Source: Cyanidioschyzon merolae
Lineage: Eukaryota
DNA length: 64,000 nucleotides
Assembly (NCBI GenBank): GCA_000091205.1
Contig: AP006495.2
Direction: 5' to 3' (one strand)
In this document: piece by piece, positions 1 to 63,443 of the stretch
Position numbering within the stretch: position 1 is the first letter of the stretch
Layout of the letters: each line of letters starts with the position of its first letter
Program-made: the position numbers and the translations under genes
The notes under the pieces: model-generated
What the model was told of the DNA's origin: nothing
The model's database searches: none
The model's input: the letters and a program-made list of their open reading frames with translations, nothing else

Positions 1-184
1 GTGCTGGCAGGAACTGGAATGCCCAATATCGTTCCCTTCACGGTAACGCCACAACAAGGCACTGTACCATGGATACTAATCCCAATTGACGGTGTCTATA
101 TCCTCAATGCAATCGAAGAGTAGCGCGCGCTCACCATAACATCGAGTGTCGCTTCCCAGTGTATCTGTCCGCGCCTGCGGAGCA

Positions 185-1087
185 TTACGCGGATCCATGA
201 TCCTCGCTTTTCGAGTTTTGCACGGTTTCTGTGTCATCCATCCGCGGAACCGCTTCTGGCGATGCGATCTTTCCGATCCAGCAGGCACCCTTGCCACCAG
301 TGACGCGTCGATACTCCGCGTGACGGATCACAAACTCCGCAAAACTGCTCACCGAAGCGATGCTATTCGCCTCGGACATGCCAAAGAGAACACAGGCGAG
401 GTTGGCCATGTCCAGGGGCCCCCGCATCTGCATCGGTGACTCTGCACCGGATACCAAAACACAACGCGACCCACGGTTCGTTCTTTGACACACCGTACGG
501 CTGTTCTGAAGCGCATATCGTCGCGCAACCTGGTCGCGCGTCAGCAGCGACGCTAGACTTAACTCGAATAGAATACCGCGCTTGGCACATGCATGCACTT
601 GCGTGCGTTTCAGTTGAAAACTAGCTCGCGTGGCTGATGGGAAACTGATCAGATCAATACAATCCAGTAACATAGCCTGCTGTAGCAACTTCTCTTCCGA
701 TACCTCTACAGCGAGGATATCATAGCTCAGCAGCGACTCGTTCGCTGCGTTGAACACATAGAGATCCGCTGCCTCCTGGACGCGCACGGTCAGGCGGTGA
801 AGCACCCGAAACGCAGGTCGAAACGACGGCGTCAAGACCGTGTTCACTGGTGACGTTGCGTCAAGTGGAGCTTGCGTTCCTGCTAGCTCCGGGTCCACGA
901 CGACCAGCGCCCGAGTGCTGCAGGCGTGCCCGGGTTCCAAACGACCCGAGACTGTCGTGTTCAGGGCAATGCCTCGATAGCCACTTTCCTTCGCAGCGGT
1001 TATGAGGGCTCGAACATCGCCTACTGTTGTGTGCCCGTGCCGTACATTCACAGCCAGGTCCCAGAAGGCGCCACGAACCATCAGCAA
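185..1087 (-). CDS. RPP30: Ribonuclease P/MRP protein subunit p30 (Rpp30/Rpp1 family)
   Basis: The 300-aa ORF aligns along its length with the human Rpp30 pattern: AFWDLAVNVRHG resembles MAVFADLDLRAG, and YDILAVEV, RGILFELSLASLL, RRYALQNSRTVC, SGAESPMQMRGPLDMANLACVLFGMSE match conserved Rpp30 blocks. The true start may be an internal Met a few codons in. Confidence 0.7.
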   Translation of the reverse strand: MLMVRGAFWDLAVNVRHGHTTVGDVRALITAAKESGYRGIALNTTVSGRLEPGHACSTRALVVVDPELAGTQAPLDATSPVNTVLTPSFRPAFRVLHRLTVRVQEAADLYVFNAANESLLSYDILAVEVSEEKLLQQAMLLDCIDLISFPSATRASFQLKRTQVHACAKRGILFELSLASLLTRDQVARRYALQNSRTVCQRTNRGSRCVLVSGAESPMQMRGPLDMANLACVLFGMSEANSIASVSSFAEFVIRHAEYRRVTGGKGACWIGKIASPEAVPRMDDTETVQNSKSEDHGSA

Positions 1088-1420
1088 AGCGCTATCTACA
1101 TGGGCATGGTGCGTATGCTAGCAGGACGCTTGTGAGCGCACTTGCAAAAAGCTGCTTGTGGGAACTATTTTTTTTGATACATATATTGACATAGATGCAG
1201 CGATGCGCTCGCGCGTGTGCAAGGCGTCCCGCTTCATACGCTCGCTTCTGGTACCGGTTGTTGCTGCTGGACTCGACAGAGCACACGTTTCTGTCGGGTC
1301 GGGCGACAGCCTGGTCGCCAACACGAGTCTCCAAGCTTTGTTCGCTAATCCCGATAGGGTTCCGGTGTGCATTAGAGGCTGGTGTAAGAGAGCAAAACTG
1401 CGGAAACAAACCCGGAGCGT

Positions 1421-2833
1421 ATGCGAGTCTTGGAGCGATTATTTTGGCGGTCTGAGCGAGCGGGGCGACCGCAGGGTTCGTCCCTGGACCAAGTGCCCGG
1501 AAACGAGTCTCAAGCGTTAGGGGACCTGTCTGGGGAACTGGAACACCCCAGGTCAGGGTTTCGAGACGAGCTCGCGGTTCGAGATTCCACACATGCCCAC
1601 AGCGACAACAGTGGCGGCACCGGCACCGATCGTGCTATACCAGCGTTGTCGAAAAGACTCAGTGGTGGTGGTGCTTCCGGCGAAAGCACCACCATGGTGC
1701 GTGCTTTTCCTGAGCACCAACGTCTGAAAGCATTCCAGGAGCTCGAGTGCCTTGCCTTTGACGAGAAAGGCAACTTTGAGAGGCGAGCGGTCTCCCGACT
1801 GGAGCTCCTTCGAGCAGCGCGCTCTGTCCAGTCTGCCCTGATCGACTATCCGCCGTTGCTCAGCGATTCGGGCGATGACCTCAGCCAGGAACAAATAGCG
1901 AAACTGATGAAACGTCGCCAAAAGCGGATACATGAATATAGACAGAACTTTCTGCAGATTCGGGATCTGCGTCAGATTGATCCGAGTTTCGCCTCGAAGA
2001 CAGCGCTTTGGGTACGTCAGAACGTACTTATTATCAGCTTGTTGCATATTCGGGCACTAATTTTTGCAGATCGTCTTCTGCTTTTCGACCCGGACGCACC
2101 GGAAGTGCAAGAGACCTCGTTGGTGATTCGAGAACGGCTGCGCTCGGTGCCGGTCGATCGTGATGTCTACGCGCCGTTCGAGTTCCGTGCGCTGGAGGCT
2201 TGCTTCATATGCGTTTGTAACGCCCTGGAGCGAGAGCTCGGTGCGTTTGAGCCTTACTTGATGCAGCTTTTGGAAGATCTCTCTCGAGAGTCTACCATGC
2301 AGAAGATTGAATCACTGCGAATGCTCAAACTACGCTTGAACGGATTTCTAGCGAAAGCACAGGATATTCGTCAGACGCTCAAGTCGGTACTGGATGAAGA
2401 TGAAGATATGGCCCGACTCTATTTGACTGAGCTCCGAAAGCAGCATGGCAAACCGCGTACGACTGAGGATCACGAAGCTGCCGAGCAGCTACTCGAGTCG
2501 TATTTGCAGTTGGTGGACCACGTTCACAACCGAGCTGAGCTCCTCGACGCAGCCACAAGCGATACGGAGGATCTCCTGAGTATCCAGTTGGACGCGATGC
2601 GGAATCGACTGCTTGTTCTCGATATGTCGATTAGTGTGGTCACGGGCGCCTTCAGCTGGGCGGATGTCGTCATCGGGCTTTTTCACATGAATTTGCAGCT
2701 TCCAATCTATGGGGAGAACGGCGGTAGTGTCGGCTGGTTTATCGGTGTAGTTTTTGTGATGCTCGCCTGGGCACTCCTGCTTGTGGCCATCATGTTCACT
2801 TGGATTCGACGCTCGGGTCTTTGGCATGCGTAA
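1421..2833 (+). CDS. MRS2/CorA-family Mg2+ transporter (mitochondrial inner-membrane type)
   Basis: The C-terminal block SDTEDLLSIQLDAMRNRLLVLDMSISVVTGAFSWADVVIGLFHMNLQLP matches the Mrs2 region DDTEDYINIQLDNHRNQLIQLEL...FGMNF, and two C-terminal TM helices follow. The canonical GMN motif reads HMN here. Confidence 0.65.
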   Translation: MRVLERLFWRSERAGRPQGSSLDQVPGNESQALGDLSGELEHPRSGFRDELAVRDSTHAHSDNSGGTGTDRAIPALSKRLSGGGASGESTTMVRAFPEHQRLKAFQELECLAFDEKGNFERRAVSRLELLRAARSVQSALIDYPPLLSDSGDDLSQEQIAKLMKRRQKRIHEYRQNFLQIRDLRQIDPSFASKTALWVRQNVLIISLLHIRALIFADRLLLFDPDAPEVQETSLVIRERLRSVPVDRDVYAPFEFRALEACFICVCNALERELGAFEPYLMQLLEDLSRESTMQKIESLRMLKLRLNGFLAKAQDIRQTLKSVLDEDEDMARLYLTELRKQHGKPRTTEDHEAAEQLLESYLQLVDHVHNRAELLDAATSDTEDLLSIQLDAMRNRLLVLDMSISVVTGAFSWADVVIGLFHMNLQLPIYGENGGSVGWFIGVVFVMLAWALLLVAIMFTWIRRSGLWHA

Positions 2834-3753
2834 CGTTTGGAGTGTTCGAACAAAACTGCGGATCCTGCACAAGCCGGAACGCTGGCTAGTATGTTGCGTG
2901 AACGCCGCGAGAGAGATGGACGGTATCCGTGCGCTTTGGACCATACGCATGGACATGGGTCAGACTGCTTCGCCCGAGGAACCTTGAAACCGATGAGGCC
3001 TGACCAGCTGCGCATTTCAGCAGCAACTCGGCGAGTCTGTCGAGACACAACAGAGACCAGGTTCGGAGACCGCTTTCGATCTTGAATGGATCATCGTCTT
3101 GGCGATACGCTTTCCACCCAGATGGCGTTGACCAAAGCACTGATAAACCTTTGTCTTTCGAGAGCGAATCACGCGGAACTTTGTTCCTTCATAATATCCC
3201 CCGAATGAGCAAACGTGAATAGGCTTGCAGAGGCTGAGGAGCACTCGTTCATGCACAACATGGATCCGTCAACTGATAGACCGATCTGATCCTTTTGAGG
3301 AAAAACATGTTCAGCGCATGGAAGATATCCGGCGAACGTTTACGGCGGCTATTGCCTGCTTCTATATGATGGTAAGCAGTCAATAGCCGTGAATATATTC
3401 TTCTGACAATCATATGTTTTGTATTGTCTTCTTCATACTACACTGGGCATTGAAACTCACGCCGTGCTTTCCCCGGGCGCTGCTGGAGAGCACTTTCGGA
3501 ATCATGAAGCCGGCTTCGGCCAGCGCACCAGTCTGGGACATAGTGGATGAAGTGGCTTGCTCAGAAACACTCCGTCGTCGTCCTCCATTGCTGGTCACAG
3601 ACGTCGCCAATGAGGAGCAGGTTCTGCAGCGCCGAAACAACGCCCAAAGCGCCGCTCTATTCTAAACACCTCTGCCCTGAGCGAGGCGACAATTGCTTTC
3701 CATAGATGCGAATTATAGATAGAAGTACCGAGTAACGGAATGTTCTTATCCAT

Positions 3754-4503
3754 CGAATAGCCAGGAAAAACTGTACATGGTGAATTGGTGTGGTGCTCGG
3801 GTCTTGCAGTATTGCTGAACCGTTCTGTATCAGCGTGTGAGCAGAGGCGGGAATCCGATTCTCCCTCTTGAACAGTGATGTTTCTCCATTGCATATAGAT
3901 TCCGTTTCCAGCACCAGGGCCTCACTGGGTGCCAGAGGATTCCCTCAGAACTTCGCTCGACACCAAGCCGGTGGACGCGATGGCAACAAGCGCCCGTCCC
4001 GGATGTTCAGCGAGGCGATCATTCGTAGGTGCAGAGTGTCCTTGAGCGCATTCTTGCCGGGGGAATCATGCTACAGCATGCCTCCGATCTTCGATAGCTC
4101 CGCAATCTGAAATTTGATCAGCTTGCTGTTCGCCATCTCGTGAATCTGGCTCTGTCTCATGCTCTTCTTCTGTATTCGTTTCACTGTGCACCGGTACTGG
4201 CGATGCACGTACATCGTCCTGAACGCATCTATGGGAATCGTGCAGCATCGATTCGTGCACTTGCTTGGTGCTGTCGCTGAGGGCACAGGATTAGACTCTT
4301 GGGGTGGTACACAGCCCCCGTAGACATAGGCTACCACAACGCGACGAGAGTAATCGGTCATTTCCTTGCTGGGAGCCCCCAGAGGGCTTTGGTGAATGCA
4401 CGCATCTTGCCTCTGTAGAACCGGAGCCCGTCGGGGGCGTCAGTGCAGTCGCATGTGCTGCTCATACAGGTCCTTCGCATGAGCCATGTGGACGCCTTCG
4501 TAC
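3754..4503 (+). repeat. 750-bp dispersed repeat, copy 1 (direct repeat partner at 18034-18780)
   Basis: Direct comparison of the two regions shows about 10 mismatches over about 750 bp. The common ends are AATAGCCAGG...CCTTCGTACT. There is no TG..CA terminus and no obvious TSD or TIR. Confidence 0.8.
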
Positions 4504-6309
4504 TTTCTCTACGTGAAGCATACAAAGCTCCTGCCTCTGATCGAGACGGTGCTCAGAGGGCCATGATGGATCCTGGCACCCCCATTCGTGTCCTTGACAT
4601 GTCCCGTTGCCTGCATTATGCTCGACTGCCGATAATAAGGAGCTCTGAAAAAGTTGAGCAGCTTCATCTACTTTTCGTTCAGGTCCTCGGCTGCGTTCTC
4701 TTGATCTAGAGCCCAGTGACCTCCATGATATTCTTAAACATGGGATGCACGCACAGAAGAAAGGTTTTCTCTTTTTCTTTTCTGAACGCTTGAAACGGAG
4801 TCCCGTTGCCTGACGAAGGCCTGGATTCTACCACGTGCATATAGACTACAACGCCGTTGATCTCTCTCGTGTTCAGGAAGATTTTCCGTTCCATCCCGTT
4901 GAGCGAGCAACCCTGAATGAGCTCTGCCAATGCCGCATGCAAACTTGTCTGAATCTTTCATTTTTGCTCGCATAGACCAGCTCTCTCGTCGCCTTGTCCT
5001 TTACATGGCCGGATTGTATGCATCTGGTGACCAGATCCTCTATTTGTTTGTTTTCCTTGGAACCCAGGCACTTTGGGAGAACAGTGGTTATGAATCTGAC
5101 CTCATCTATGAGTGGATCTACTCATCCTCGAGCACCTTTTTGTCTACACCAACGCGAGCACGCCCGCAGACCGAGACGCACCTTTCCGCCTCCTGGACTG
5201 CGCGAGCTGACGGGCATCAGAGCAGCTCAGGCTTCGTGAATGCCGAACAGGATTCGTCGAAGACCGGTGTCGCGGACTCGAACAACTCTTCTATTGATCC
5301 GGGGATGTTAGAATGGCGTTCCACATCAGAGGAAGCGATGTCCTCTTGATTGAACCAAGGGGAGCGTGCTTGCACGAACTGCAGCTCAATTAGAATCTAA
5401 GCTGTGTACTCTTTGATCGCTTTTGAGCGGTCGAAAGTAACGTTGTGTTAGAGCAGGGCAGAGCGATATAGAGAGGCATAGGTATGAAACGTGCTCTGAG
5501 AAAGGATGAGGTATGGATCGGTTCCATCCGATTGGCGATTTGTAGGCGATACACGACTGCATTGTCGCTGGGGCTGAAGCTGTCGTCATGCTCGCTTGTC
5601 GCTTCTTAACGATAAGCGGGTTTTCCTTCCCGGAGTACCCAGGTACAGGTCTAGCATTCCTCTCGCGAAAGAAGTCTCATCGCGTGAGAGGAGCATTCGT
5701 CGCTCCTGTAATACGCATTGATGATCCAATACGAAATTGATCACGTGCTGCGCAGGGCACGACAAACTCCCACAGAAGCGCACTTTCATCTCCGTCCATC
5801 TGTTCGTCTTCATCACCAGTCGAATCAAATGTGCGGAAAACTTCACATACCATGGCTTCTCTAATTGTATTGCTTAGAGAATGTATGGAATACAATGGGT
5901 TGACGAGTAGACATTCGCGCGGATAGATTTCATCAATTTCTGTTTCGGGTGCATAACGTTCAGACCGAGGACTACGACAAATGCGGTTCATCCACTTGCT
6001 AACCGTCAACTAACTGACTTGTGCAAAGTAGGCCTATTTTTCCGGCTAGCAATGACAGCACAAGTCTTTCGATGACCTTGCCCCAATGCATCGTATGCAT
6101 TTCTTGTGCTGACTACCTCTGAGAAAACCGAACAGAAACAAAAACGGTGTGCTGTTGCAGGTATCCCTGAATGCACTGCGCTGTGGCTCAGGAGAGGCGG
6201 CGCATGAACGCCAACGCGTAGCAGCGATACGATCCCTTCGAAACCGGAGAGCGTCAAAACGCTTTCGTACTCATTTTTTTCGAGGCACTCTCGTCGGCTT
6301 TCTCCCAGC

Positions 6310-13883: not shown

Positions 13884-14076
13884 ATCGATAGGACGTACGA
13901 AACGACCAGAATATCCGAGATGAAGTATAGGTAATGTAACTTGGGAGTAGGGTGTTTGATGGATACCTCACCGCGCACTGAAAACACACACACAAAAAAA
14001 GTAAGAAAAGAAAAATGCGCATAATCGGAGAACGCTGGCCTATGGAAACGGTTTGTCTATGGAAAAAAGAAAGAAA
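13884..14076 (+). mobile_element. SINE-like short retroposon, copy A (5'-truncated), flanked by 12-bp target-site duplication AACGGCGATCTC
   Basis: The element ends in the A-rich tail GGAAAAAAGAAAGAAA. Perfect 12-bp direct repeats lie at 13872-13883 and 14077-14088. The body is about 85-90 % identical to copies at 20961-21165 and 40781-41005 in reverse orientation. Confidence 0.6.
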
Positions 14077-18033: not shown

Positions 18034-18780
18034 AGCCAGGAAAAACTGTACATGGTGAATTGATGTGGTGCTCGGGTCTTGCAGTATTGCTGAACCGTTC
18101 TGTATCAGCGAGTGAGCAGAGGCGGGAATCCGATTCTCCCTCTTGAACAGTGATGTTTCTCCATTGCATATAGGTTCCGTTTCCAGCACCAGGGCCTCAC
18201 TGGGTGCCAGAGGATTCCCTCAGAACTTCGCTCGACACCAAGCCGGTGGACGCGATGGCAACAAGCGTCCGTCCCGGATGTTCAGCGAGGCGATCATTCG
18301 TAGGTGCAGAGTGTCCTTGCGCGCATTCTTGCCGGGGGAATCATGCTACAGCATGCCTCCGATCTTCGATAGCTCCGCAATCTGAAATTTGATCAGCTTG
18401 CTGTTCGCCATCTCGTGAATCTGGCTCTGTCTCATGCTCTTCTTCTGTATTCGTTTCACTGTGCACCGGTCCTGGCGATGCACGTACATCGTCCTGAACG
18501 CATCTATGGGAATCGTGCAGCATCGATTCCTGCACTTGCTTGGTGCTGTCGCTGAGGGCACAGGATTAGACTCTTGGGGTGGTACACAGCCGCCGTAGAC
18601 ATAGGCTACCACAACGCGACGAGAGTAATCGGTCATTTCCTTGCTGGGAGCCCCCAGAGGGCTTTGGTGAAAGCACGCATCTTGCCTCTGTAGAACCGGA
18701 GCCCGTCAGGGGCGTCAGTGCAGTCGCATGTGCTGCTCATACAGGTCCTTCGCATGAGCCATGTGGACGCCTTCGTACTA
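18034..18780 (+). repeat. 750-bp dispersed repeat, copy 2 (partner of 3754-4503)
   Basis: See copy 1; same orientation, 14.3 kb apart. Confidence 0.8.
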
Positions 18781-20960
18781 CATGGAGCTTACATCATGTC
18801 CCGCCAGTTCCATTCTTCTGTGTCAGAATTGCTAGGGCACGACGGGTACGATCCAAAGAGGGTGCGTCCCAGGAAGCGCTCGGCATTGACCCGCGGGAGG
18901 TATTTGAGGTTGTTTTCAATTTATCATTGACGCTCGCGGCTTACATTTGGTGATCGCTGACGTTGCTCGGCGTTGTGCCAAACTATACAGGGAAGCCTGT
19001 ATAAAGATTTCGGATCAAAAGATCAGTCCGTCAGACGTCTTCTATCCCGATCATCTGTTGTCCTGCGTTGCGAAGGTGAGATCGAAAGATATCCAGAGAA
19101 ATATGGATAGATGGCAGCGCTGCGTCCGGATTTCATGCGATCAGTTGCTTGACGATGTGGGCCAAAGCGAGAGAAGCAGGCGAGCGTTCCTCAAATGAGA
19201 AGCCACGCGATCTTTCCTAGCGTCCATCAGCTCGCGTAAGAAAGGTGAACCCGCAGATGCGTTTTCGTAGGGAGGCCATGCCAACGGTTTCAGGTTGATC
19301 TCTCAGCCCCGATAGGTTTTCTTTCTGGTTCCTCGTCGTCCTGCGTTCTGTACAAAGTTGCTGCTTTTGCCCCATGAGTCCTGCACCTTCTACTTCTCCG
19401 CGTTCGCCCATACTTGGTGGAGAATCATGAACGTATACCCATACTCCATAACCGTTCGTTTTTCTTGGGATTCTGATGCGCCGTAAGGGCGGAATCATTG
19501 AAGCGCCACTGCTCTATTGATGTATTTACGGTCCCGTAACTACTTTTTCGTGATCCCCGTTCCGACCGTGTCCATAAACCGCAGCGCGCTTGTCCTCTGC
19601 CTCGCGCATACGACGAGCAACACTGCAGATCCGGGCTGGTCAGGGCAGGGAACAACTCGACCAAGAAGGATGCCATGGATGTGTTCGAGTCGTCCGTTGA
19701 TCCGTAAGCGTCGAAACGGTCTCTGACAACAGAGAAGACGCCTGCGACTCGATTCAACCCAGGAGCATACACTGGCACCGAGAGCACTTCAACTCGAACC
19801 GCAACTGCATGCACCGTTCCCGCTTGTGTGAGTGATAGAAAGCGGCGTTATGTAAGAGCAGGCGAGAGGCGTATGGAAGGAAAAGTCCTGAAGTGCTTCG
19901 ACGAAGCGTGAGGTGATGAACGATCTTACCCGATTGGCGATTTGGCGGCAACTATACGATAGCTACGACGCTATGACTGTTTTTTTAGTTACGGTCGCTC
20001 GTTTCACCTCTGCAAACAGCGGTTTGTTCCTTGTTGAGAACACGTGCACAAGTCTGCGATTTCCCTGGGACGAGGTCCCTTCGAGTGAGACGGAGAACCG
20101 TCTCAGATATAGGAAGCATTCGCGTTTCTGTACGAAATCGATGGCGTGCTTTTCAGCACGGGACCGTCCCGTACGGAAGCACGCTCTTTCATCATGTCCA
20201 TGTGTTTCTCTCGATAAGCATTGGTATCAGCGGTGTGGAAACTCCACACGCTTTGGCTTCTTTGGAAGAAGTTCGTTGAGAATGTTTGGAGTGAATTGGG
20301 TTGACGAGGAGACAGGCGCGAAAATAGAGTTTCATAGGTTCTGTGTTTTGGGTACACGACGCGTAGGATAGAGGACTACCAGGAAGGTGGTTCCTCCACC
20401 TGCTCATCGTTCAATGAAAGACTCGCACATGTAAGACCTTTTTTCGCAATCTAGCAGTCGCAGCATCAATTAGCTCCAAGACCTTCCTCCGATCTACACG
20501 ATGCATTGTTTTTGTGAAACATGCTCGGGTGATACAGAAACATACACAAAATGGACGTCATTGTATATGCGTCCCCGAAGGCACTGCTCGATTCGGAGCA
20601 TACCAGAAGCGTGTCGTTCTACCAGAATCGACTCGGCCATATGGAGGTTTCCTCTGAACACTCCATATATTACAGCATTGGCCTTGGATCAATACAGTCG
20701 ATGCTGCGGCTAGCGCGCATACACGCTGCAACCTTCGCTCGCGAACAGCGTTGCGACCGATCCACCGTCGGTATCATCGCATGCACGCAAACCGATTGGC
20801 TTTGAATGGAATACACTACGAGAGACTGAACTGACTCGCCTGGATGTGCAAACGCTTCTGGTTAGCGGCGCTCCGACTTGCCCAGGAATGTGTGGTCTTA
20901 TCGAAACTTTGTCGCCTGAGAGCACTGCAGGACCCGGAGAAAGCGCTTCAATCGATTCAA

Positions 20961-21165
20961 TTTTTTATTCATTGACAGAACGTTTCCTTAGGCCAGCGTT
21001 CTCCGATTATGCGCATTTTTCTTCTCTTACTTTTTTTGTGTTTTTTCAGTGCGAGGTGTGGTATCCATCAGCTCCCTACCTCCATGTTACATTACCTATA
21101 CTTCTTCTCGGATATTCTGGTCGTTTCATACGTCCTATCGAGTGTGTGCCTAGTGCCTGCCGAAA
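20961..21165 (-). mobile_element. SINE-like short retroposon, copy B (full-length relative to copy A; sense on minus strand, poly-A at the 20961 end)
   Basis: Reverse-complement alignment with copy A and direct alignment with copy C at 40781-41005. The T-run at 20961-20966 corresponds to the A-tail on the sense strand. Confidence 0.5.
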
Positions 21166-21364
21166 GCGACCGCACCGGCGCCTAAAGCGCCGGTGCGTCA
21201 ATCGATGCAATACTGGCATTCGCGCCCTGGCCCCGATCGATGACCCGAAGATCCGCCGCCCGCGACATCCGGACGCACCCGCTATCGGTGCGCGCATGCA
21301 TCATCGGCGCATATCGAGACGTGAACCCTATATATATCAATTCTAGTGCCTAACTGAACGAAAC

Positions 21365-39635: not shown

Positions 39636-40742
<1,107 letters not shown>

Positions 40743-40780
40743 CTACGCACTCGCCCCGCGGCGAATGCCGTCCAATCGAT

Positions 40781-41005
40781 GTACGATTTTTTTTCCTGAC
40801 AAAACGTTTACGTGGGCCAGCGTTCTCCAATTGTGCGCATATTTCTTTTCTTTCTTTTTTTGTGCTCTTTTTTCAGTGCGCAGTGAAGTATCCATCAAAC
40901 GCCCTACCTCCATGTTACATTACCTATACTTTTTCTCGGATATTCTGGTCGTTTCATACGTCCAATCGTGTGCGCCTAGTACCTGCCCAAATCATCCGTC
41001 TTTGC
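40781..41005 (-). mobile_element. SINE-like short retroposon, copy C (sense on minus strand; T-run at 40781-40789 is the A-tail)
   Basis: Collinear with copy B over about 225 bp, including the shared 5' segment GGCAGG(C/T)ACTAGGC(G/A)CACAC that copy A lacks. Confidence 0.5.
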
Positions 41006-41318
41006 GCTTGAACCGCTGGGGCAGATAGTTCATAGAACTAGAACGGTTTTTCTACAGCACAGAGGGCGTCGGCTCGAGGCGTGCTTCACCCGACGTAGAA
41101 TCGGGTCTCGTCGTCAGTTTGTGCTCAGACAGTCTGCGGATGCAGGCTTGCCTTCGCTGCACGACACGCTGGAGAAACTTGGCTGTTCGGATATATCCTG
41201 GGAGCCGCCTCTCTCCTTCGTGACCATGTGTGGGATGCGTTGTTGTCGGTTGGCAACCCGGGTGTAAATCGGCGTACGATGCTGCGGTTGGAAGTACAGT
41301 AGCGGCGGTGAACGCGCC

Positions 41319-43512
41319 TTAGACAAAACGTCTCCAACCGACGTGCAGACGCCTCCACGTCTTTCTCGGCCGGCCACCGAATACTGCTTCCAACTTTTTC
41401 TCACATAATACCACCTTGAGAGGTTGTTCAACAAAATTCCCTCTTGTGAAGTCTGGAGGCCTTGTCTCCAGCACCGCACATCTCCTTGTATTGATAGCGG
41501 CGTTAGAGTCTCTGTTCACAAACTCCATACATTTCTTTCCATCACTGGTTGTACTTACTAACGCAAGCAATCCACGAACTTTCGCTCCCCTTTCCACTTG
41601 CTGTTCCGTCAGCGCACCGTACTTTTTTCTATCCTCAGGGCTCCGCTGACGCTTTTCCATATCGACCCTCTGGAGTGTATAGGACGTTCGGGACTCATCT
41701 ACAGGTATCGTAACGAAACGCCGTGCACACTTCTTGTACGTTCTTGTCGTTGGAGCTGGTGTACACCCTTTTCGGGTCTTCCAGCGTCCTGCTCCATATG
41801 CTACTGCGGGCCTCTAACTCTCATTCTCCTTGAGGGTGCTCAATTGATTGAAAAAGTTGGCGAATGCACGCTGCTTACTACAGTATAGATTCATTCGCAG
41901 ACGAGCCCAGCGGGGCTTTGTATACTCCTCCCACAGCGCCTCCCAATGAGCAACACGAACTTTCACGAATTTCCGAAAAGCTTGAAAGTCTGCTCCGCGG
42001 CTCGTCACCTCGCCCAAAGCTTCTGGGTGATCCTTCATTCCTGCGTTCCACGTGTCAATTTTCTTCCTTGCATTCATGATTCCCGATTCTCAATAGTACC
42101 TTGCTCTCGGGAATCTCAACAGAAGCATATCTTTCTGAAGCAAGTTACCGTCAGTACCATCTTCCGCACGTTTGGGTTTTGCGATAGTTATGATATTTGT
42201 GTTTCAGGGTCCGCGCCAACGATAAAGTCGTTATCCTGCACTTTCTGCAACGCAGGTTCCGCCTCCTCCTTCTCTTCATCCTTCGTCACGTCAACGACAA
42301 GGTCGTTATCCTGCACTTTCTGCGTCGCAGGATCCTCCTCCTTCTCATCTTCATCCTTCGTCACGGGCGATGCCAAAGGCGAACCAGTACGATCTTTCTT
42401 CAACCGCCGATAGTGTACATACACGGCTACTCCATCGGTTTCGATCAACCCAGTGAATACCTTTTTTCTGCTCACTCTCAGACGTTTGGAATCGAAGATA
42501 TTCTTCCAGTGGGTCTCCCGGTTTTCGCCAGTGAAGTCCTCCCTGCTGACATTGACCTCCGGACTGATCTCCCTCATGATGCCGAAAAGGACTCTGGAGT
42601 CGATACTCACAAAAAATGTGAATTGATGGTGCACATTGGAACCACGTTGAAGCGCTTCCCCATTAGGAAAGCCTTCCGTCTCTCCCATTCTTCATTTTTT
42701 TCCTCACTCAGCTTCATCTCCGGTTTGACTTCGAGCTTTCGGTCCAGAAACACGAAACAGCGCAGGACGAGGCGATTGTATCTTTCCTTATCTTTTTTCA
42801 ACTCTGTGATCTTGTCTGTTGGATTCGCCAACCCCAGTACCGCACGGTGCTCTCGTATAGCCGCACGGATCGCAGCAGCTTTATTCGTGCTCCTGCGTAA
42901 CGCCTTCTTGTCGACAAATTCGACCTCATCTTCATGCTTGCGATCGTTCGTGATGCCATTGATAATCGCCCATATTCCTTTGCGAGAGATGCCCGGGTAC
43001 AGCGCAAACACGGCGCGTCTCATGAAACGTTCGAGGTTCATTGTCAAATGGTTCTTCAGGTTCGTGATGTACATCATCGCTCCGTGTATGTAAATATTCG
43101 AGTCACCCTTGCATCGAGTACCCTCGAAGCGGAATTCCGTGAGGTTTTCGTGGAGGGTATGCACTAGCACATTTTCGCTCCGCGCTTCCCCTGTACCAAA
43201 GATGAGGTGACAAACAAAGGTCTTCTCGAGGATCTCGTCTGGAATCTCGACTGTTTTGATGTCCGTCACGTCGCGATACATCTCCGTCGCCATATGCATT
43301 AGTCCTGACGACGTCTTTAGAATAGTCTTGGAGTACGAATCGACACGGTTTCTGATGGCGTCTCCCAACTTTTCCTTGTTCGGATCCTTGATATGTTTAA
43401 AAAGAGCGGCTTCCACCACCATCTCGCCGTACTGGCGTCTTTCTTGCGGTCGTTGACGTCGGGCACCCTGCATTTGCTTCTTGGTCGTCTCCTGGTCCTC
43501 TTTGCTCGGCAC
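41319..43512 (-). pseudogene. Fanzor1-like (eukaryotic TnpB/OMEGA RuvC nuclease) gene relic on an AT-rich island, split into at least 4 frame-shifted ORF segments
   Basis: Consecutive minus-strand ORFs 43512-42607, 42688-42188, 42077-41814 and about 41815-41319 tile about 2.2 kb (about 730 aa), a Fanzor1-like size. The last segment reads ...TIPVDESRTSYT...GKKCMEFVNRDSNAAINTRRC. VDE.RTS corresponds to the TS..C.. block and NRD-x-NAA-x-N is RuvC-III. A middle segment has a RuvC-I-like [12 protein letters not shown]. Local GC is clearly lower (about 45 %) than surrounding host DNA. Confidence 0.5.
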
Positions 43513-44688
43513 TGTTTTTTATCCGCCAGCCGGCGACACTGTGCGTCCGTGGTCCTCCACTTGCATTTCTATGCTTTTATATTTTTGAAAACGGACCCGC
43601 TTCGAACACTTCTGGTATATACACCGAAAAATCACTTGAATATACTTGCTTCAGGCTTGAAATACTATTGGACAGAGATTTATACTTTGCTACGACTTCG
43701 ACGCAAATACATCTTGCCCGATACAGCAACAGTTCAACTAGTGGTCAGGATCGTGTTTCCCTTCAACGTCGAGATGCATGCCGTACCCCATGCATGCTAG
43801 ATATGGAGGTACACGTATCGACAACGCTATAGGAGAAAAAGAAAAGAACGAACCGCTAGCTAGCAACCAGATGACAATTTCTTCCCCCCTATGCTAAACC
43901 TAAAAGGCGGCAAAAAGTTTTCCGTATTTTCGAAAGCTTACCTTCTAGGCAGAAGGTCACGCGTGCCAGCCGGATCTGCTTCGCTAGCGCGTCATGCTCT
44001 TCCCAGTGGTGGGTGCTGAGGCGCGACTTGGGCAACTCGCCCGCAACGCGGTTTACTCTGCCACTCGGAGCGAGTATGCTGTGTCTGGCCGTCGCACTGG
44101 GAGCAATAGTGCCCTAATATATCGCTTCGCGCTTTAATGGGAAGTATGTCTGTCTGCGCGGTTTGCAGGCTCCCGGAATGATAATTTATCCTGATTCCGC
44201 CTCGGATGAACGGTGCCTCGAGGTGGCGCCCCCAGTGGTATAGCAAAGCCTTTCTGTCTCTATGATGCATCTGCACCAGCGGTATACGCGTTACGGCTGG
44301 TGCTCTCTACAGGTTCGACGCACAATGGATTGTAGAAAACGATCAGTACGCCCGAGAAGGAGTCCAGGTTATGGAACCTGGAAGTAAGGGGATCGATGGA
44401 TGCTCCACCGCGCGCTTATACCAGGCGCACAGTCGGGGAACACAGCCCAGAGTCACGGAGCTGTCAATTAGAACAAGGCATCGAACGCGGCCGGCGGCGG
44501 TTGGGCGCGCTCGAAATGCATTTGCATCAACTAGCATGAATGGGGAACGTACGTTTGCCCGTGAAAATCTCGTTACTGGGATAGGATGCTGGTGATCTCG
44601 TAGAGTGCCTTGGAATCCACAAGTGAAATGCTGCGTTATTCACAAAAAAACTATTGTCGTTCTGTTTAGTTTGAGTCTGTGAGCTGGA

Positions 44689-46047
44689 ATGGACGCCCAA
44701 AAGGTGACCGCGTCGGCGCCGTACGCCTCTCGGCTTGATCCGCGCACAGCAGGCGTCTCTTTTCCGGAACAAGGCGATGTACAGAGCCCTGCAGAGAACG
44801 AGGGCTCCGCGGTATGCCCACCGCGCCAGACCTCGCTCGGTACGAAGAGCCTGGGAGCGAATATCTTGTTTGGCGGCTTGGCCGGTGTAACTGGTACCAC
44901 GATAATTTTTCCGCTGTACACACTGAAGACCCACTTGATGACTGATACGGGCTCGCGCGAGTGCAGAGGATCATCGGAGTCTGCGGCTGTTTATAACACA
45001 GCGAGCAAAGCAGAGCCCGTTAGGGGTAACGCGGTCTCAACCGGGACCGCGAATCCAACCAGCAGTACAGGACCCGCCCTGGCTACCGAAGCGGCCAAGC
45101 ATACATCAACGTTAGCCGTTAAGGATACGGCTTGTACAGATAGCCATGCTAAGTTACCAACAGTGGAAGCTGCTGCCCCGGCCAGATCATCCAAAGTCGC
45201 ATCGAACGGGTCCAGAGGCCCAGCTGCCGCTTCGCAAAGCACGCTCGCGTCGACTCCGCGGACGAATGCCTTGAAAGCTGCCTCGCTTTTGAAGCGACGA
45301 CCGCGGCTGGTCGAAACGCTCCAGCAGATTCTTCGCTCTCAGGGAGTACGCGGCCTCTACCGTGGCCTGACGCCGGTACTCATTGGGGTCGCGCCTGAGA
45401 AGGCGATCAAACTTGCCGCGAATGATTTTTTCGTGAGCGAGTTTAAGGAGCGGTCACCGAATCCGCATGGACCCCTATCTGTGAAGCAAGGCATGCTGGC
45501 CGGTGCAGGTGCCGGTCTGTGTCAAGTGATAGCGACCAATCCCATGGAAGTGTTGATGATTACGATGCAGACTCGTGCGGCGCATGGCCATCCGCAACAC
45601 AGCGTCACGGATACGATTCGTATGCTGGGTTTGCGCGGTCTCTACCGTGGGGTCAGCGCCACACTCACAAGAGATATCCCTTTTAGTATGGTCTTTTTCG
45701 GAATGAATACTAGTTTGAAGGAGCGACTTTCACTGCATTACCAAGGGGGTCTGCCGATGCGGATTGTTTTCGGCGTAGGGATCCTGTCAGGTGTGACGGC
45801 AGCTGCGCTCAGCACGCCATTTGATGTTGTGAAAACTCGGATACAGAGCGGCGTTCGGGACAGACATGGTAGATCGTATCATTCGGTAGTGAACACGCTC
45901 GTACGGGTGGTTCGAGAGGAGGGTTTTCGGGCTCTCTGGAGTGGCGCTGTTCCGCGCGTCATGATTGTTGGCCCTTTGTTTGGGATTACGCTACTTTTTT
46001 ATGAACTTCAGCAGAGATTGGCACAGTCGGCACATCAGCGAACTTGA
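44689..46047 (+). CDS. Mitochondrial carrier family (SLC25) protein with Ala/Ser/Thr-rich insertion
   Basis: Three carrier repeats: LFGGLAGVTGTTIIFPLYTLKTHLM, GLYRGLTPVLIGVAPEKAIKLAANDFF, PFDVVKTRIQSG, GAVPRVMIVGPLFGITLLFYE. An insert of about 110 aa of low complexity lies between repeats 1 and 2. Substrate class not assignable. Confidence 0.75.
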   Translation: MDAQKVTASAPYASRLDPRTAGVSFPEQGDVQSPAENEGSAVCPPRQTSLGTKSLGANILFGGLAGVTGTTIIFPLYTLKTHLMTDTGSRECRGSSESAAVYNTASKAEPVRGNAVSTGTANPTSSTGPALATEAAKHTSTLAVKDTACTDSHAKLPTVEAAAPARSSKVASNGSRGPAAASQSTLASTPRTNALKAASLLKRRPRLVETLQQILRSQGVRGLYRGLTPVLIGVAPEKAIKLAANDFFVSEFKERSPNPHGPLSVKQGMLAGAGAGLCQVIATNPMEVLMITMQTRAAHGHPQHSVTDTIRMLGLRGLYRGVSATLTRDIPFSMVFFGMNTSLKERLSLHYQGGLPMRIVFGVGILSGVTAAALSTPFDVVKTRIQSGVRDRHGRSYHSVVNTLVRVVREEGFRALWSGAVPRVMIVGPLFGITLLFYELQQRLAQSAHQRT

Positions 46048-53747: not shown

Positions 53748-54002
53748 AGGGCCGAGACAATCCCACGAGATTCCTGAGTTAGGGCGTGCTCTCTGGTCCA
53801 GAGACCAATGTTGAACTTGCAGAGACGTTCCCGGAACTGCAACAATACCTGCGTTCTACGAAGCGAAAACGCTTCACGGCCACGGGATCAATGAATACCC
53901 TACGTGCAGATGCCTCCCAGTCGCTTCCGACCGGCCACCTGTTATCGGTTTCAGCTGGTCGTCATGCAACTCGACCCTGAGAGGCTGCTCCACAAAGTTG
54001 GA

Positions 54003-54212
54003 TCACGTCAACTCCTCTGGCCTCGTCCTCAACACAATACATAGTCTGACATTGATGTCGGCGTTGACGTCTCGGTTCACGAACTGCATGCGTTTATTGC
54101 CGCTGGCGGAACGCATCAATGCAGGGATTCCTCGAACTCGCGCCCTCTGTGCCACTAAAGTCTCTTCATCGTCCCGTCGGGCTAACATTGCTTCTCGCCT
54201 GTCTCCGCTCTA
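54003..54212 (-). pseudogene. Short Fanzor1-like RuvC-III fragment
   Basis: ...VRGIPALMRSASGNKRMQFVNRDVNADINVRLCIVLRTRPEELT* is collinear with the 41.3 kb relic (VRGLLALVSTTSDGKKCMEFVNRDSNAAINTRRCAVLETRPPDFT) at about 60 % aa identity and about 65 % nt identity. The frame closes about 8 codons upstream. Confidence 0.4.
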
Positions 54213-54652
54213 GTTTTTCTTCTTCTTCGCCGTCAAATGCTCTTCGTCGCTCGATGGTCGGCAGAAAGAGAATTTTCTAGTTCTTTTTTCTCGGTAATCG
54301 GCGACACCTGGCTTCCAGGAACCTCGACTTTTATCCCTAGACCTTTTCCATCATCATTTCATTTCTGCATATGAACGAACTTGGGATCCATCTGCGATCA
54401 ACCGCGAAAAAGCATGTAACAAGACGATCCTGGGAGTGAAATACAAATGAGTTGAGAGTCTACAAGCCCGCAACGCCTGCACATCACAGAATCCCGAGAC
54501 TCTCCATCGAGAGGGTAGCGTTCGGAAAGGCATCGAGCGTGCGTGCGCGCATGGAGACGGCGGTCACGGAATTCCCCGACTCTTCTGTCGCAAAGCGACG
54601 CTTGTTTCCCGCGCTTTTTTATGAGCACTGAATCCGCCAGATAAAATCTTCC

Positions 54653-60551: not shown

Positions 60552-61840
60552 ATGCGCGCTGCAGGAAAAGCTGGCATTGTCGATGACTGGGCAATGGTAG
60601 ACAGCGGCCCGTTGATCACCTTACGGAAAGCAAAAGCGACGATAGAAAGCACAACGGCTGTCCCTGTTTCTCAACAGCTTGTTTATGTGGTCGTGAATAC
60701 ACCGGGATACAGTGACAAAAAAGTCCCAGGTTTTGCATGGCCATCTTGCCCCGAAACAGCAACCAAAGAGTTCCCGGAATCTCACTATCCATGTAATGGA
60801 GAGGGAACTCGGTTTGTTTTCCCAGTCAATGAGGCTTGCTTCGGACGAAATGATCGAAGCGTTCATGGGTATTCGAGGTGAAGCGAGCCTGTTGTATGTA
60901 CGATCGAACTCGTAGAGAATGAGAACATCACCATCTGTTCTTGCTGTCGTAGACTGATTCGGCGGCCTCAGTTTCGCTTGTATACATGGCTCGAAGAACA
61001 GAACCCACTTCATCGAATCATTGAAGACCTGTCCCTGACGTCTGGCGACGTCCCTCTACCGGACGACATGGTACTCTACCATTCTCCTGACGTTCGACCT
61101 TCCTCCGATTCTGCCGGGACGTAGCTGCTTTTGATTCCTACGTACTCTCCGTGCTTCAACTCCATCGCAGGAGTAGTTTCTATTGTGAAACGTGTGATGA
61201 TCGCTCCACTGGGCAAATCGATGAAGCATTCAGCACACTGTGACATATCGGCGGCATATCTCGCCTTCTTCCGAAAGTCCTTCACGCTCCGGGGCGGTCG
61301 CCGCGTAGCGGCATAAACAAGTGCGTTCATTTGAAGAAATGAAAAATCCAGGGAAAAGGTATGAACATGGGCGTCGAAGATCCCGGCGAGCCGTCATCAC
61401 CGGATTCGACAACATGAAAACGAAAACATCCTCTTCTGGCGGCCCATCGAGCGAAGGAATGCAGGTGACGAAGATGAAGATGAAAAAAGGGAGATACGCG
61501 TGTAAAGTCGCTTGCCCAACGGGACGACGACGAGACTCTTGCGGCACAGAAGGCACAAGTTCTGGCAATCCTTGCATTGGTTAGTTCACCCAGATGAAAT
61601 AAACGCGTGGATTTCGTGTGCAGAGACTTCAATGCCGCCATTCATATTAGACGATGTGTGGTGCTGAAGACACGACTCGCAGAGCGGACGCGATCCAATA
61701 TTGTGGAGCAGCTTGTCAGGCTCGAAACGCACGAGGAGAAGTTGCAGCCGATAGCAATCGACAGGTCGGCAAAGGCTGCACGGCGTCTTTCCGCCTGTAT
61801 TGATTTACCGTGTGGTTGCGAAACGTCTTTGCTCCGTTGA
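60552..61840 (+). pseudogene. TnpB/Fanzor-like relic, plus strand (RuvC-II, Zn-knuckle and RuvC-III pieces in different frames)
   Basis: ORF 61321-61584 has AVITGFDNMKTK (degenerate vv.EdLn.k.m) and a RYACKVACPTG knuckle. A frameshift is followed by ORF 61607-61840, VCRDFNAAIHIRRCVVLKTR...NIVEQLVRLETHEEKLQ, collinear with ...NRDSNAAINTRRCAVLETR...NFVEQPLKVVLCEKKLE of the 41.3 kb relic. The GTG start shown by the track is an artefact of alternative-start calling. Confidence 0.35.
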
Positions 61841-63443
61841 GCATGTATTGACGCGTGTGATAAGAGGAGAGATAATGGAAGCGTCGAATCTCCAGTATGT
61901 GGATGACGCTCCCTCAAACAACACAGATTGCCAGCCTGGGCACTCGGTGCGCCGCGTTTCCGAGCCTCTTCGGCACCGTTATCAGGAAAAATGGAACAGG
62001 TCTACAGATCTACTGCAGAGGTATACACTAGAATGAGGGTCTCTTCCCGCTGTCATCGATATCTGTCGTTGTGGACATTACCCGTGACTGCTTCTCATGC
62101 CTGGCTCCGAGCTCCGTATTGAAATACACCGATCTCTCATGTGGATCCAGCCGAATGTTTCGCTGTCAAAGGATGTTCATAGCAGCTTTCATGCCTCGAT
62201 TTCATGGCATCGGGCTGTAGTGAATGCATTACATGCATAGGTAGAAGCTCCGGTCTACACATCGCTTGCCATTGTCACCATCATCATCGTTGTATCCAGG
62301 CTGTGTGCGACGTATACAACGGACACACAGGGCTATGGTCTGGTGTTACCGTATACGCAGCACACCATGCGCTGCGACAGCAAACGTACGGCGGAAACAA
62401 GCGTGAGTCTACCGACTTGTTCAAGGAGCTGCAAAAAGGAAACGACTGAAAATTCCCTTCGTATCGTGGTAGCCTAAGTTGCTGGACGCATTGGAGCGCG
62501 CATGGTTGCTTTCCTGATCCTCGAACAAAAACACGTACTACGAGAGTACGAATATCGATACCGCACGATTGCCATGGATGAATTCAGGACGGCACCCGGG
62601 TAACAAGAGCACAAGTTCGCACCGAGGCCGCCAGATGGAAACAGAGTGAACCGGGGCTCCATGCACGACCACTTGCAACGCAAACTGGCTGAACATGATT
62701 TGGGAACCGATCGTCGGTGAAAATCTTGCGTTTGTCGGATTCCAGCACCAAAAGTGTACCCAAAAGCACTTTCTGCTCTCTGGCTCGGACGCCTCGATCA
62801 ATATCCGATAATGTCTGATGCTTCATGATCGTCCAAGGGCTTCGTGTCCAGCGAACTTTGGACTGGATGTTTTTATTACCAGTCTGAGCATTGTGCGGAA
62901 ACGCTGCATATTTCCGATGGAAAACATCAGTATCTCGAAGAGCGTTCATTGGATTCCCGCGCGGTGCACGGCACCTATATGGTACGGTCACTCATCCGGA
63001 ATCGCTAAAGTGGCATACCGAGACTCCCGCCACCATATTCCTGGTGCATTTTTCGAACGACCATCATAATGCATCTTCCGATATTCTTGAGTATACCAGG
63101 CGACGTAAGCTGCTTTACGACGTATCCCGCCGCACTACGGAAATGCTCACCAGCGTCGATGACAACAACTTGTTGCGGATGCGTGAGCAGCGCTCATCCG
63201 TACTCCTGCTGTGCCACACTTCCAGCGCTCTCAAAACAGCGCTTCCGCACAACACCAGGACGCATCTTCACAACACAAGCACGCGCTGTTCATGATGCGA
63301 GCATCCGCATGTTGCCCTTGCCTTGAACGGCACTCGCGGGTATCGCCCTGAACACTGCGTCTCTAGAGCATGTATTCGCGGAACACATCCCCGCGGAAAC
63401 CGCGCTTGCCATCCTACCACAGCACACCCCGTTTATTCGGATT

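Follow-up and report, generated by a model that had tools for sequence, protein, structure and literature searches.

A decayed copy of the Fanzor1-encoding CMe-1A repeat between the GAPDH and mitochondrial-carrier genes of Cyanidioschyzon merolae

Between the gene for GAPDH (39636–40658, minus strand, 55.8% GC) and an open reading frame (ORF) for a mitochondrial carrier (44689–46047, plus strand, 56.5% GC) in the nuclear DNA of Cyanidioschyzon merolae 10D lies a tract that carries four consecutive minus-strand ORFs, and it raises the question of what gene these ORFs once formed and whether any part of it still works. The locus belongs to a stretch of 64,000 nucleotides of contig AP006495.2 that we analyzed as a whole and refer to as the window. 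Its GAPDH, ascorbate peroxidase (APX) and M16 protease proteins match C. merolae 10D entries exactly. An earlier note on this DNA, which had named the same two flanking genes, had read the ORFs as a frame-shifted Fanzor1-like gene, that is, a eukaryotic relative of TnpB, decaying within a mobile element. We find that positions 44416–41294 of the minus strand are an old, fixed and non-functional copy of CMe-1A, a Fanzor1-encoding repeat family of C. merolae, and we place the probability of this reading at about 95%; no evidence contradicting the assignment came up. The element itself has been known since 2013, and the copy described here is one of about 150, and dead.

CMe-1A is the sole Fanzor1 family reported for C. 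merolae (Bao & Jurka 2013, Mob DNA 4:12, PMC3627910). In the published description, the family numbers about 150 copies that share about 80% identity with a consensus of 3169 bp; it has no terminal inverted repeats (TIRs), its target-site duplications (TSDs) were not determined, and a few of its copies have an intact ORF. The first 635 bp of the consensus are identical to a separate repeat, TE-N2_CMe. Additional file 2 of that paper provides the sequences of the consensus and of the 734-aa CMe-1 protein. Using blastn with the published consensus, we aligned its positions 66–2193 to 44404–42289 of the window at 82.1% identity and its positions 2117–3135 to 42290–41294 at 85.9% identity. The decayed copy as a whole (41294–44416, minus strand) corresponds to consensus positions ~66–3135 of 3169 and is 84% identical to the consensus in a global alignment. 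It is colinear with the CMe-1 consensus at the protein level as well, with the same amino acid at 562 of 735 codon positions, and a codon-wise alignment to the consensus ORF counts 81 synonymous and 159 non-synonymous differences. The window copy and the published family thus have in common the species, the sequence family, a colinear 734-codon ORF, a 5′ module equal to TE-N2_CMe, the absence of TIRs and a divergence from the consensus within the reported range of about 80%. The copy differs from the consensus in the truncation of both its tips, in an extra 75-bp tandem unit and in its disabling lesions.

The same repeat family was confirmed on 377 metagenome stretches, from which we fetched 80 loci for comparison. 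An ORF of at least 700 aa is kept in only about three distinct loci out of 81, and the majority of the other copies are dead too. The view of the locus as a mobile element is borne out by these 80 related loci, by more relics in the window and by the 84% identity to the CMe-1A consensus. The suggestion that intact paralogues may exist agrees both with the published description (PMC3627910) and with the uninterrupted ORFs of 722–752 aa that are present in related environmental genomes.

The four minus-strand ORFs (43512–42607, 301 aa; 42688–42188, 166 aa; 42077–41814, 87 aa; 41660–41319, 113 aa) tile 2.19 kb in three frames, each continuing the previous one in a three-frame translation. This matches the four segments over about 2.2 kb that had been described, and the motif strings IPVDESRTSYT and FVNRDSNAAINTRRC picked out at the time are both found in the translation; the length then estimated for the fused product, about 730 aa, fits the 734 aa of the published CMe-1 protein. 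Taken alone, the hand-repaired 717-aa window protein gave no Pfam or PDB sequence match, a result that tells against a Fanzor1 identity and that called for a profile of distant relatives. This protein has 43 close relatives, all in JGI/ENA environmental assemblies, and many close relatives are precomputed as PF26935 (DUF8286), a recent Pfam entry. One relative, P0001, has an uninterrupted 752-aa ORF (66% identity, 93% coverage; a gene call without an initiator Met). A full HMMER scan found 1232 relatives of P0001, and our alignment A2 comprises 71 diverse full-length relatives with 28–40% identity to it.

When searched against the PDB, the A2 profile matched only PpFz 9cf0 (E = 4e-20), SpuFz 8gkh (2.5e-10) and GtFz 9cer (1.3e-5); no further family reached E < 0.1, and the alignments to these solved Fanzor1 proteins cross all three RuvC motifs. 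An AlphaFold (AF2) model of P0001 made from the A2 alignment reached a mean predicted local distance difference test (pLDDT) score of 82.2 and a predicted template-modeling (pTM) score of 0.80; an earlier run, for which the alignment was shallow and limited to close relatives, had given a pLDDT of 32 and was unusable. The top seven matches of this model in a Foldseek search of the PDB were all Fanzor1 structures (SpuFz, PpFz and GtFz; E 6e-17 to 5e-14, template-modeling (TM) score ≤0.73), and the next were Cas12 proteins at E ~5e-3. No TnpB or Fanzor2 chain appeared at a profile E ≤ 1 or in the top 50 Foldseek matches. By the sequence profile, built from relatives of the window protein, and by the predicted fold of the intact relative P0001, the family is Fanzor1, and the profile and structure searches that had been proposed as a check thereby returned significant Fanzor1 similarity. 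The form of RuvC-III used earlier to tell Fanzor1 from TnpB, NRD-x-NAA-x-N, served as a lead only, with the profile and fold searches being decisive; NAA-x-N is also found in bacterial TnpB.

The codons of the catalytic D…E…D triad are all retained in the window copy, in the order RuvC-I, RuvC-II and RuvC-III on the minus strand. They are the aspartate codon GAC of GADPG (42209–42211), the glutamate codon within VDESRTS (41694–41696) and the aspartate codon within FVNRDSNAAIN (41508–41510), which correspond in A2 to an invariant D in DPG (D484), an invariant E in VDEFRT (E656) and a nearly invariant D in NRD-x-NAA-x-N (D725). The RuvC-II glutamate aligns to DEFRTS or DEYKTS of the solved Fanzor1 proteins, and the RuvC-III aspartate to NRD of PpFz and SpuFz. 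The succession of RuvC-II, zinc knuckle and RuvC-III that had been proposed for this part of the protein holds for the RuvC codons but not for the zinc knuckle. The CMe-1 clade has no CxxC pairs and hence no recognizable zinc ribbon or TNB domain between RuvC-II and RuvC-III, where the A2 clade has a single conserved Cys, in RGLLWC, and PF07282 is touched by only 12 of the 71 relatives. The only His/Cys cluster between the two motifs, YTHHELGC, is gone from the window copy by deletion. In the P0001 model, the region between RuvC-II and RuvC-III is still folded.

Solved Fanzor1 structures come from Spizellomyces punctatus (SpuFz1; 8GKH, 9CEU–9CEZ), Parasitella parasitica (PpFz; 9CF0–3) and Guillardia theta (GtFz; 9CER–T). 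Their overall fold is that of the P0001 model, and they share with the CMe-1 clade the motif order DPG (RuvC-I), DEFRTS (RuvC-II) and NRD (RuvC-III) at a sequence identity of only 12–15%. SpuFz and PpFz carry the CxxC…CxxC zinc-ribbon cysteines that the clade lacks, whereas the clade has, unlike the solved proteins, a variable 25-aa tandem-repeat linker before RuvC-I. In the window this linker is encoded by two units of a 75-bp tandem repeat (42217–42365, minus strand, 25 aa per unit; Tandem Repeats Finder). The consensus has one unit, P0001 four and P0007 six; the extra unit of the window copy is in frame relative to the consensus, and the orthologous locus L091 is shorter than the window by exactly one unit. 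The repeat-bearing linker has a pLDDT below 50 in the P0001 model and is its only long low-confidence, predicted disordered part. Bacterial TnpB of IS200/IS605 elements, Cas12f and other Cas12 proteins have a RuvC core in common with CMe-1, but their fold matches to P0001 are weak (E ~5e-3 and worse, TM ~0.2), and CMe-1 differs from bacterial TnpB in its eukaryotic nuclear host, its larger protein and its long helical N-terminal part.

The remnant of the Fanzor1 (CMe-1) reading frame extends over 41319–43572 of the minus strand, 734 codons in the consensus, and ends in a TAA stop at 41321–41319. Codon-wise alignment to the consensus shows that the start codon is lost (ATG to Ile, 43572–43570) and that nonsense codons have arisen at three positions where K, R and Q are conserved. 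The first, at 43519–43521 (SPAGG*KT), lies beside a 6-nt deletion and was found by frame translation and alignment; the others are R471 (CGA to TGA, 42090–42092) and Q563 (CAG to TAG, 41814–41816). In the global alignment, a 2-nt insertion at 42615–42616 produces the first frameshift; the second comes from the loss of 1 nt at 42210/42209, just past the RuvC-I aspartate codon. A 21-nt deletion at 41679–41680 has removed YTHHELGC. As its frames read, this copy cannot make the protein.

These lesions are not confined to the reference assembly. We observed the 4,030-bp intergenic block in ten independent environmental assemblies at 98.6–99.0% identity. All ten share both frameshifts, the 2-nt insertion standing in identical context in each, as well as the 21-nt deletion and the 3′ junction, and in all ten the 87-aa ORF is delimited by the two downstream stops. 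The presence of both frameshifts and the deletion in 10/10 assemblies means that they are not sequencing errors; every strain sampled carries the insertion, which is old and fixed. The description of the gene as a frame-shifted, decayed fossil therefore stands, with a lost ATG, three stops and two frameshifts, the latter recurring in all ten assemblies. An empty orthologous site from which exact ends or TSDs could be read was not found among the ten environmental assemblies, all of which carry the insertion.

Of the other explanations that we weighed, the one that survives best, though very improbable, is that the host has kept a fragment of the element for a new role, for instance the intact 301-aa N-terminal ORF (43512–42607) or an RNA from the 3′ end. 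The 301-aa, 87-aa and 113-aa ORFs have unchanged lengths in 10 environmental strains, and the whole 4-kb block is 98.6–99% conserved. Yet this conservation is uniform over the intergenic block, obviously dead parts included, and strains as close as these, about 1% divergent and 100% identical in the GAPDH protein, would show it anyway; moreover, the terminal hairpin of the CMe-1A family is missing from the window copy. Still less credible is a functional gene whose frame changes would be introns, programmed frameshifts or sequencing errors and from which a Fanzor1 nuclease would still be made. In its favor, none of the catalytic codons (D, E and D) has been lost, and the ratio of 81 synonymous to 159 non-synonymous changes represents somewhat fewer replacements than pure neutral decay, an excess of synonymous changes that is explained by subfamily divergence before insertion. 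Protein homology runs unbroken over the frame changes, the aligned segments overlapping in their coordinates and leaving no spacer between them, so that these are not introns, and the C. merolae genome has only about 27 introns in all. The three stops, the lost start codon, the 21-nt deletion between RuvC-II and RuvC-III and the recurrence of the frameshifts, the deletion and the stop-bounded 87-aa ORF in 10/10 assemblies argue against a working gene in the same way. The idea that the locus is an island gained recently by horizontal transfer, or that it is a TnpB (bacterial) or Fanzor2 element, has next to no chance of being correct. The local GC dip and a RuvC fold common to TnpB, Fanzor and Cas12 could suggest it, but the dip amounts to about 5 points only and agrees with the composition of the family consensus; the copy differs from that consensus by 16% and is fixed in all sampled strains, and significant matches are to Fanzor1 structures only.

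The base composition of the dead CMe-1A copy is less unusual than had been thought. GC content is 49.9% over 41100–43800 and 54.7% over the whole window, of which this interval is the GC minimum for 2.7-kb stretches. The earlier note had given a value of about 45% across exactly this interval and had taken it as a hint of horizontal acquisition; a level of 45.5% is reached by a single 400-bp stretch (43600–43999), the dip spans the entire intergenic block from 40659 to 44300, and a recent acquisition is at odds with a copy that is old and fixed. The CMe-1A consensus has a GC content of 52%, and the mild dip is accounted for by the makeup of this family and of intergenic DNA.

The borders of the element also differ from the 41100 and 43800 first assigned to it. 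The copy runs to about 44416, some 600 bp past the earlier limit, and stops at 41294–41264, and 41100–41263 belongs to another repeat. On the 3′ side, homology of the window to the 80 loci ends sharply at 41294; on the 5′ side, it ends at 43767–43822 for copies without the 5′ module and at ~44380–44416 for copies with it. This non-coding module, the equivalent of TE-N2_CMe, occupies 43839–44416 (minus strand) by consensus alignment, and many loci lack it. At the tips, ~65 nt at the start of the consensus and 34 nt at its end find no match in the window, which means that neither complete terminus (consensus positions 1 and 3169) is present; the family assignment is unaffected. We considered 41294, where about 50 loci stop, as the true right end and rejected it, as comparison between loci shows about 45 nt more, leading into a hairpin. 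The window has instead a degenerate 3′ tail (CTTCCAACCGCAGCATCGT…; 41264–41293, minus strand) without the family terminal hairpin, and its folding (dG −5.9, z +0.4) contrasts with the 16–19-bp hairpins of many copies. A minority tail, CTkCCrACCGCAGCr, replaces the hairpin in four loci, namely the window, L057, L064 and L059:6510, which diverge from one another immediately after it. This tail may mark a subfamily whose end is different, or else a point at which truncation has recurred.

Outside the CMe-1A copy, a neighboring repeat of about 480 bp (40788–41263, plus strand) has within it a segment resembling TE-N2 and the CMe-1A 5′ region, with 40903–41105 equivalent to consensus positions 84–282 on the strand opposite to the element. 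It sits between the Fanzor relic and GAPDH and ends 130 bp upstream of the ATG. At other loci, this repeat either lies about 60 bp in front of a Fanzor core, where it forms an alternative to the 5′ module, or stands alone, and further stretches of its family occur in the window at 20935–21184 (plus strand) and 13886–14068 (minus strand). A repeat search found no inverted repeats at the element borders. With a sensitive local alignment, we obtained a 72% inverted pair of about 220 nt (40880–41105 versus 44190–44411) as candidate TIRs, which we rejected because one arm is the separate TE-N2-like repeat, located elsewhere in other loci. The check for TIRs and TSDs at the boundaries that had been proposed thus yielded no accepted TIRs and, for TSDs, no empty site.

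The 3′ end of the element is where a guide RNA would be expected. This omega-RNA had been placed at about 41.1–41.4 kb, of which 41100–41263 is the TE-N2-like repeat; our candidate is 41470–41294. By analogy with related systems, the stretch 41294–41470 (minus strand), which overlaps the last ~50 codons and 25 nt past the stop, could be the remnant of an omega-RNA scaffold. Over the 49 right ends compared, variation follows a strong codon periodicity at RuvC-III (entropy 0.35/0.13/0.83), which is lost over the last ~170 nt although conservation there equals that of coding sequence, and the P0001 ORF stops about 130 nt earlier than the others. Three results fail to support a structured scaffold. 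Consensus minimum-free-energy helices of the 3′ region on alignment A4 had 83% of cells paired, with covariation not above that of shuffles (25/500 for the score, other measures being unremarkable); RNAalifold found essentially no structure in the raw MAFFT alignment of the 49 right ends, in which the two hairpin variants are misaligned; and the 3′ region had no Rfam match. Applied to the realigned tail, ViennaRNA alifold likewise found no structure. Since covariation did not rise above shuffles, we do not claim an internal scaffold structure. The window copy has lost the hairpin and cannot encode the protein, and the omega-RNA question is therefore moot for this locus.

Many copies of the family end in a hairpin of 16–19 bp, for example at L015:6610–6655, in L061 and at L059:10225–10271. 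The arms differ between subfamilies yet remain complementary, as in the two variants CGTTCGA/TCGAACG and CGTTTTTC/GAAAGRCG; a matched 6-nt indel is seen in both arms in L001/L003, and 22% of the hairpin pairs are G–U. The hairpin is more stable in the sense than in the antisense RNA in 37 of 45 unique tails (Wilcoxon p = 4.6e-6, a value that overstates independence among these related copies). Comparison of 45 right ends suggests that the family hairpin extends about 12 nt past the published consensus end. At the left ends of full copies, a short T-run (TTTTTY) lies just outside consensus position 1 in nearly all copies, as at L057:2997, L070:3019 and L059:8663, and the sequence further upstream is unrelated. 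The T-run may represent either a preference for the target, similar to a target-adjacent motif (TAM), or an unrecognized extension of the element. It is possible, and we propose it only tentatively, that the 2013 description missed an end architecture of CMe-1A composed of a sense-specific, co-varying hairpin beyond the consensus end and a T-run on the left.

Four further Fanzor relics lie within the same 64 kb. Two older Fanzor1 relics, at 3819–4959 and 18094–18777 (both minus strand), match the C-terminal half of CMe-1, its RuvC part, at only about 30% amino acid identity and have no long ORFs; they may represent more diverged Fanzor1 lineages beyond the single family of 2013. The other two derive from CMe-1A. 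At 53886–54414 (minus strand), consensus positions 837–961 are joined to 2840–3088 in a derivative that has an internal deletion and keeps the 3′ region, and at 61529–61846 (plus strand) there is a 3′ fragment corresponding to consensus positions 2840–2987. Among the metagenome loci it is common to find copies that retain both end regions but have lost internal sequence, as in L049 and L061.

An intact CMe-1A has a non-coding 5′ region of about 0.9 kb, the first 635 bp of which equal TE-N2_CMe, followed by a single intron-less Fanzor1 gene of 734 codons. The encoded protein begins with a REC/WED region, continues into a disordered linker of repeats and then has a split RuvC nuclease with the D-E-D triad. 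At the 3′ end, coding sequence passes into a conserved non-coding stretch that the long hairpin closes; judging by the solved Fanzor1 and TnpB systems, this end would act as the omega-RNA scaffold, with the guide taken from flanking DNA immediately beyond the right end. IS200/IS605 elements are likewise without TIRs and have a hairpin at the right end; CMe-1A resembles them in both respects and, by analogy, may do so in a 3′ guide RNA. A TnpA was not seen, although no explicit search for one was made. The window copy has no role beyond recording that an element once inserted between the genes for GAPDH and the mitochondrial carrier.

The analysis confirms that a degraded Fanzor1 gene can be recognized from sequence alone; otherwise the finding itself matters little, since the paper in which the family was named had already counted C. 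merolae among the Fanzor1 hosts. The tentative end architecture would matter more. If it is correct, with the hairpin being the closing stem of the omega-RNA or a transposition signal and the T-run the target or TAM, CMe-1A would be a tractable case for asking how a transposase-less, Fanzor1-only element reaches about 150 copies. C. merolae is genetically tractable, and the hairpin, the T-run and the internally deleted derivatives would offer handles for defining the omega-RNA of CMe-1A and its target.

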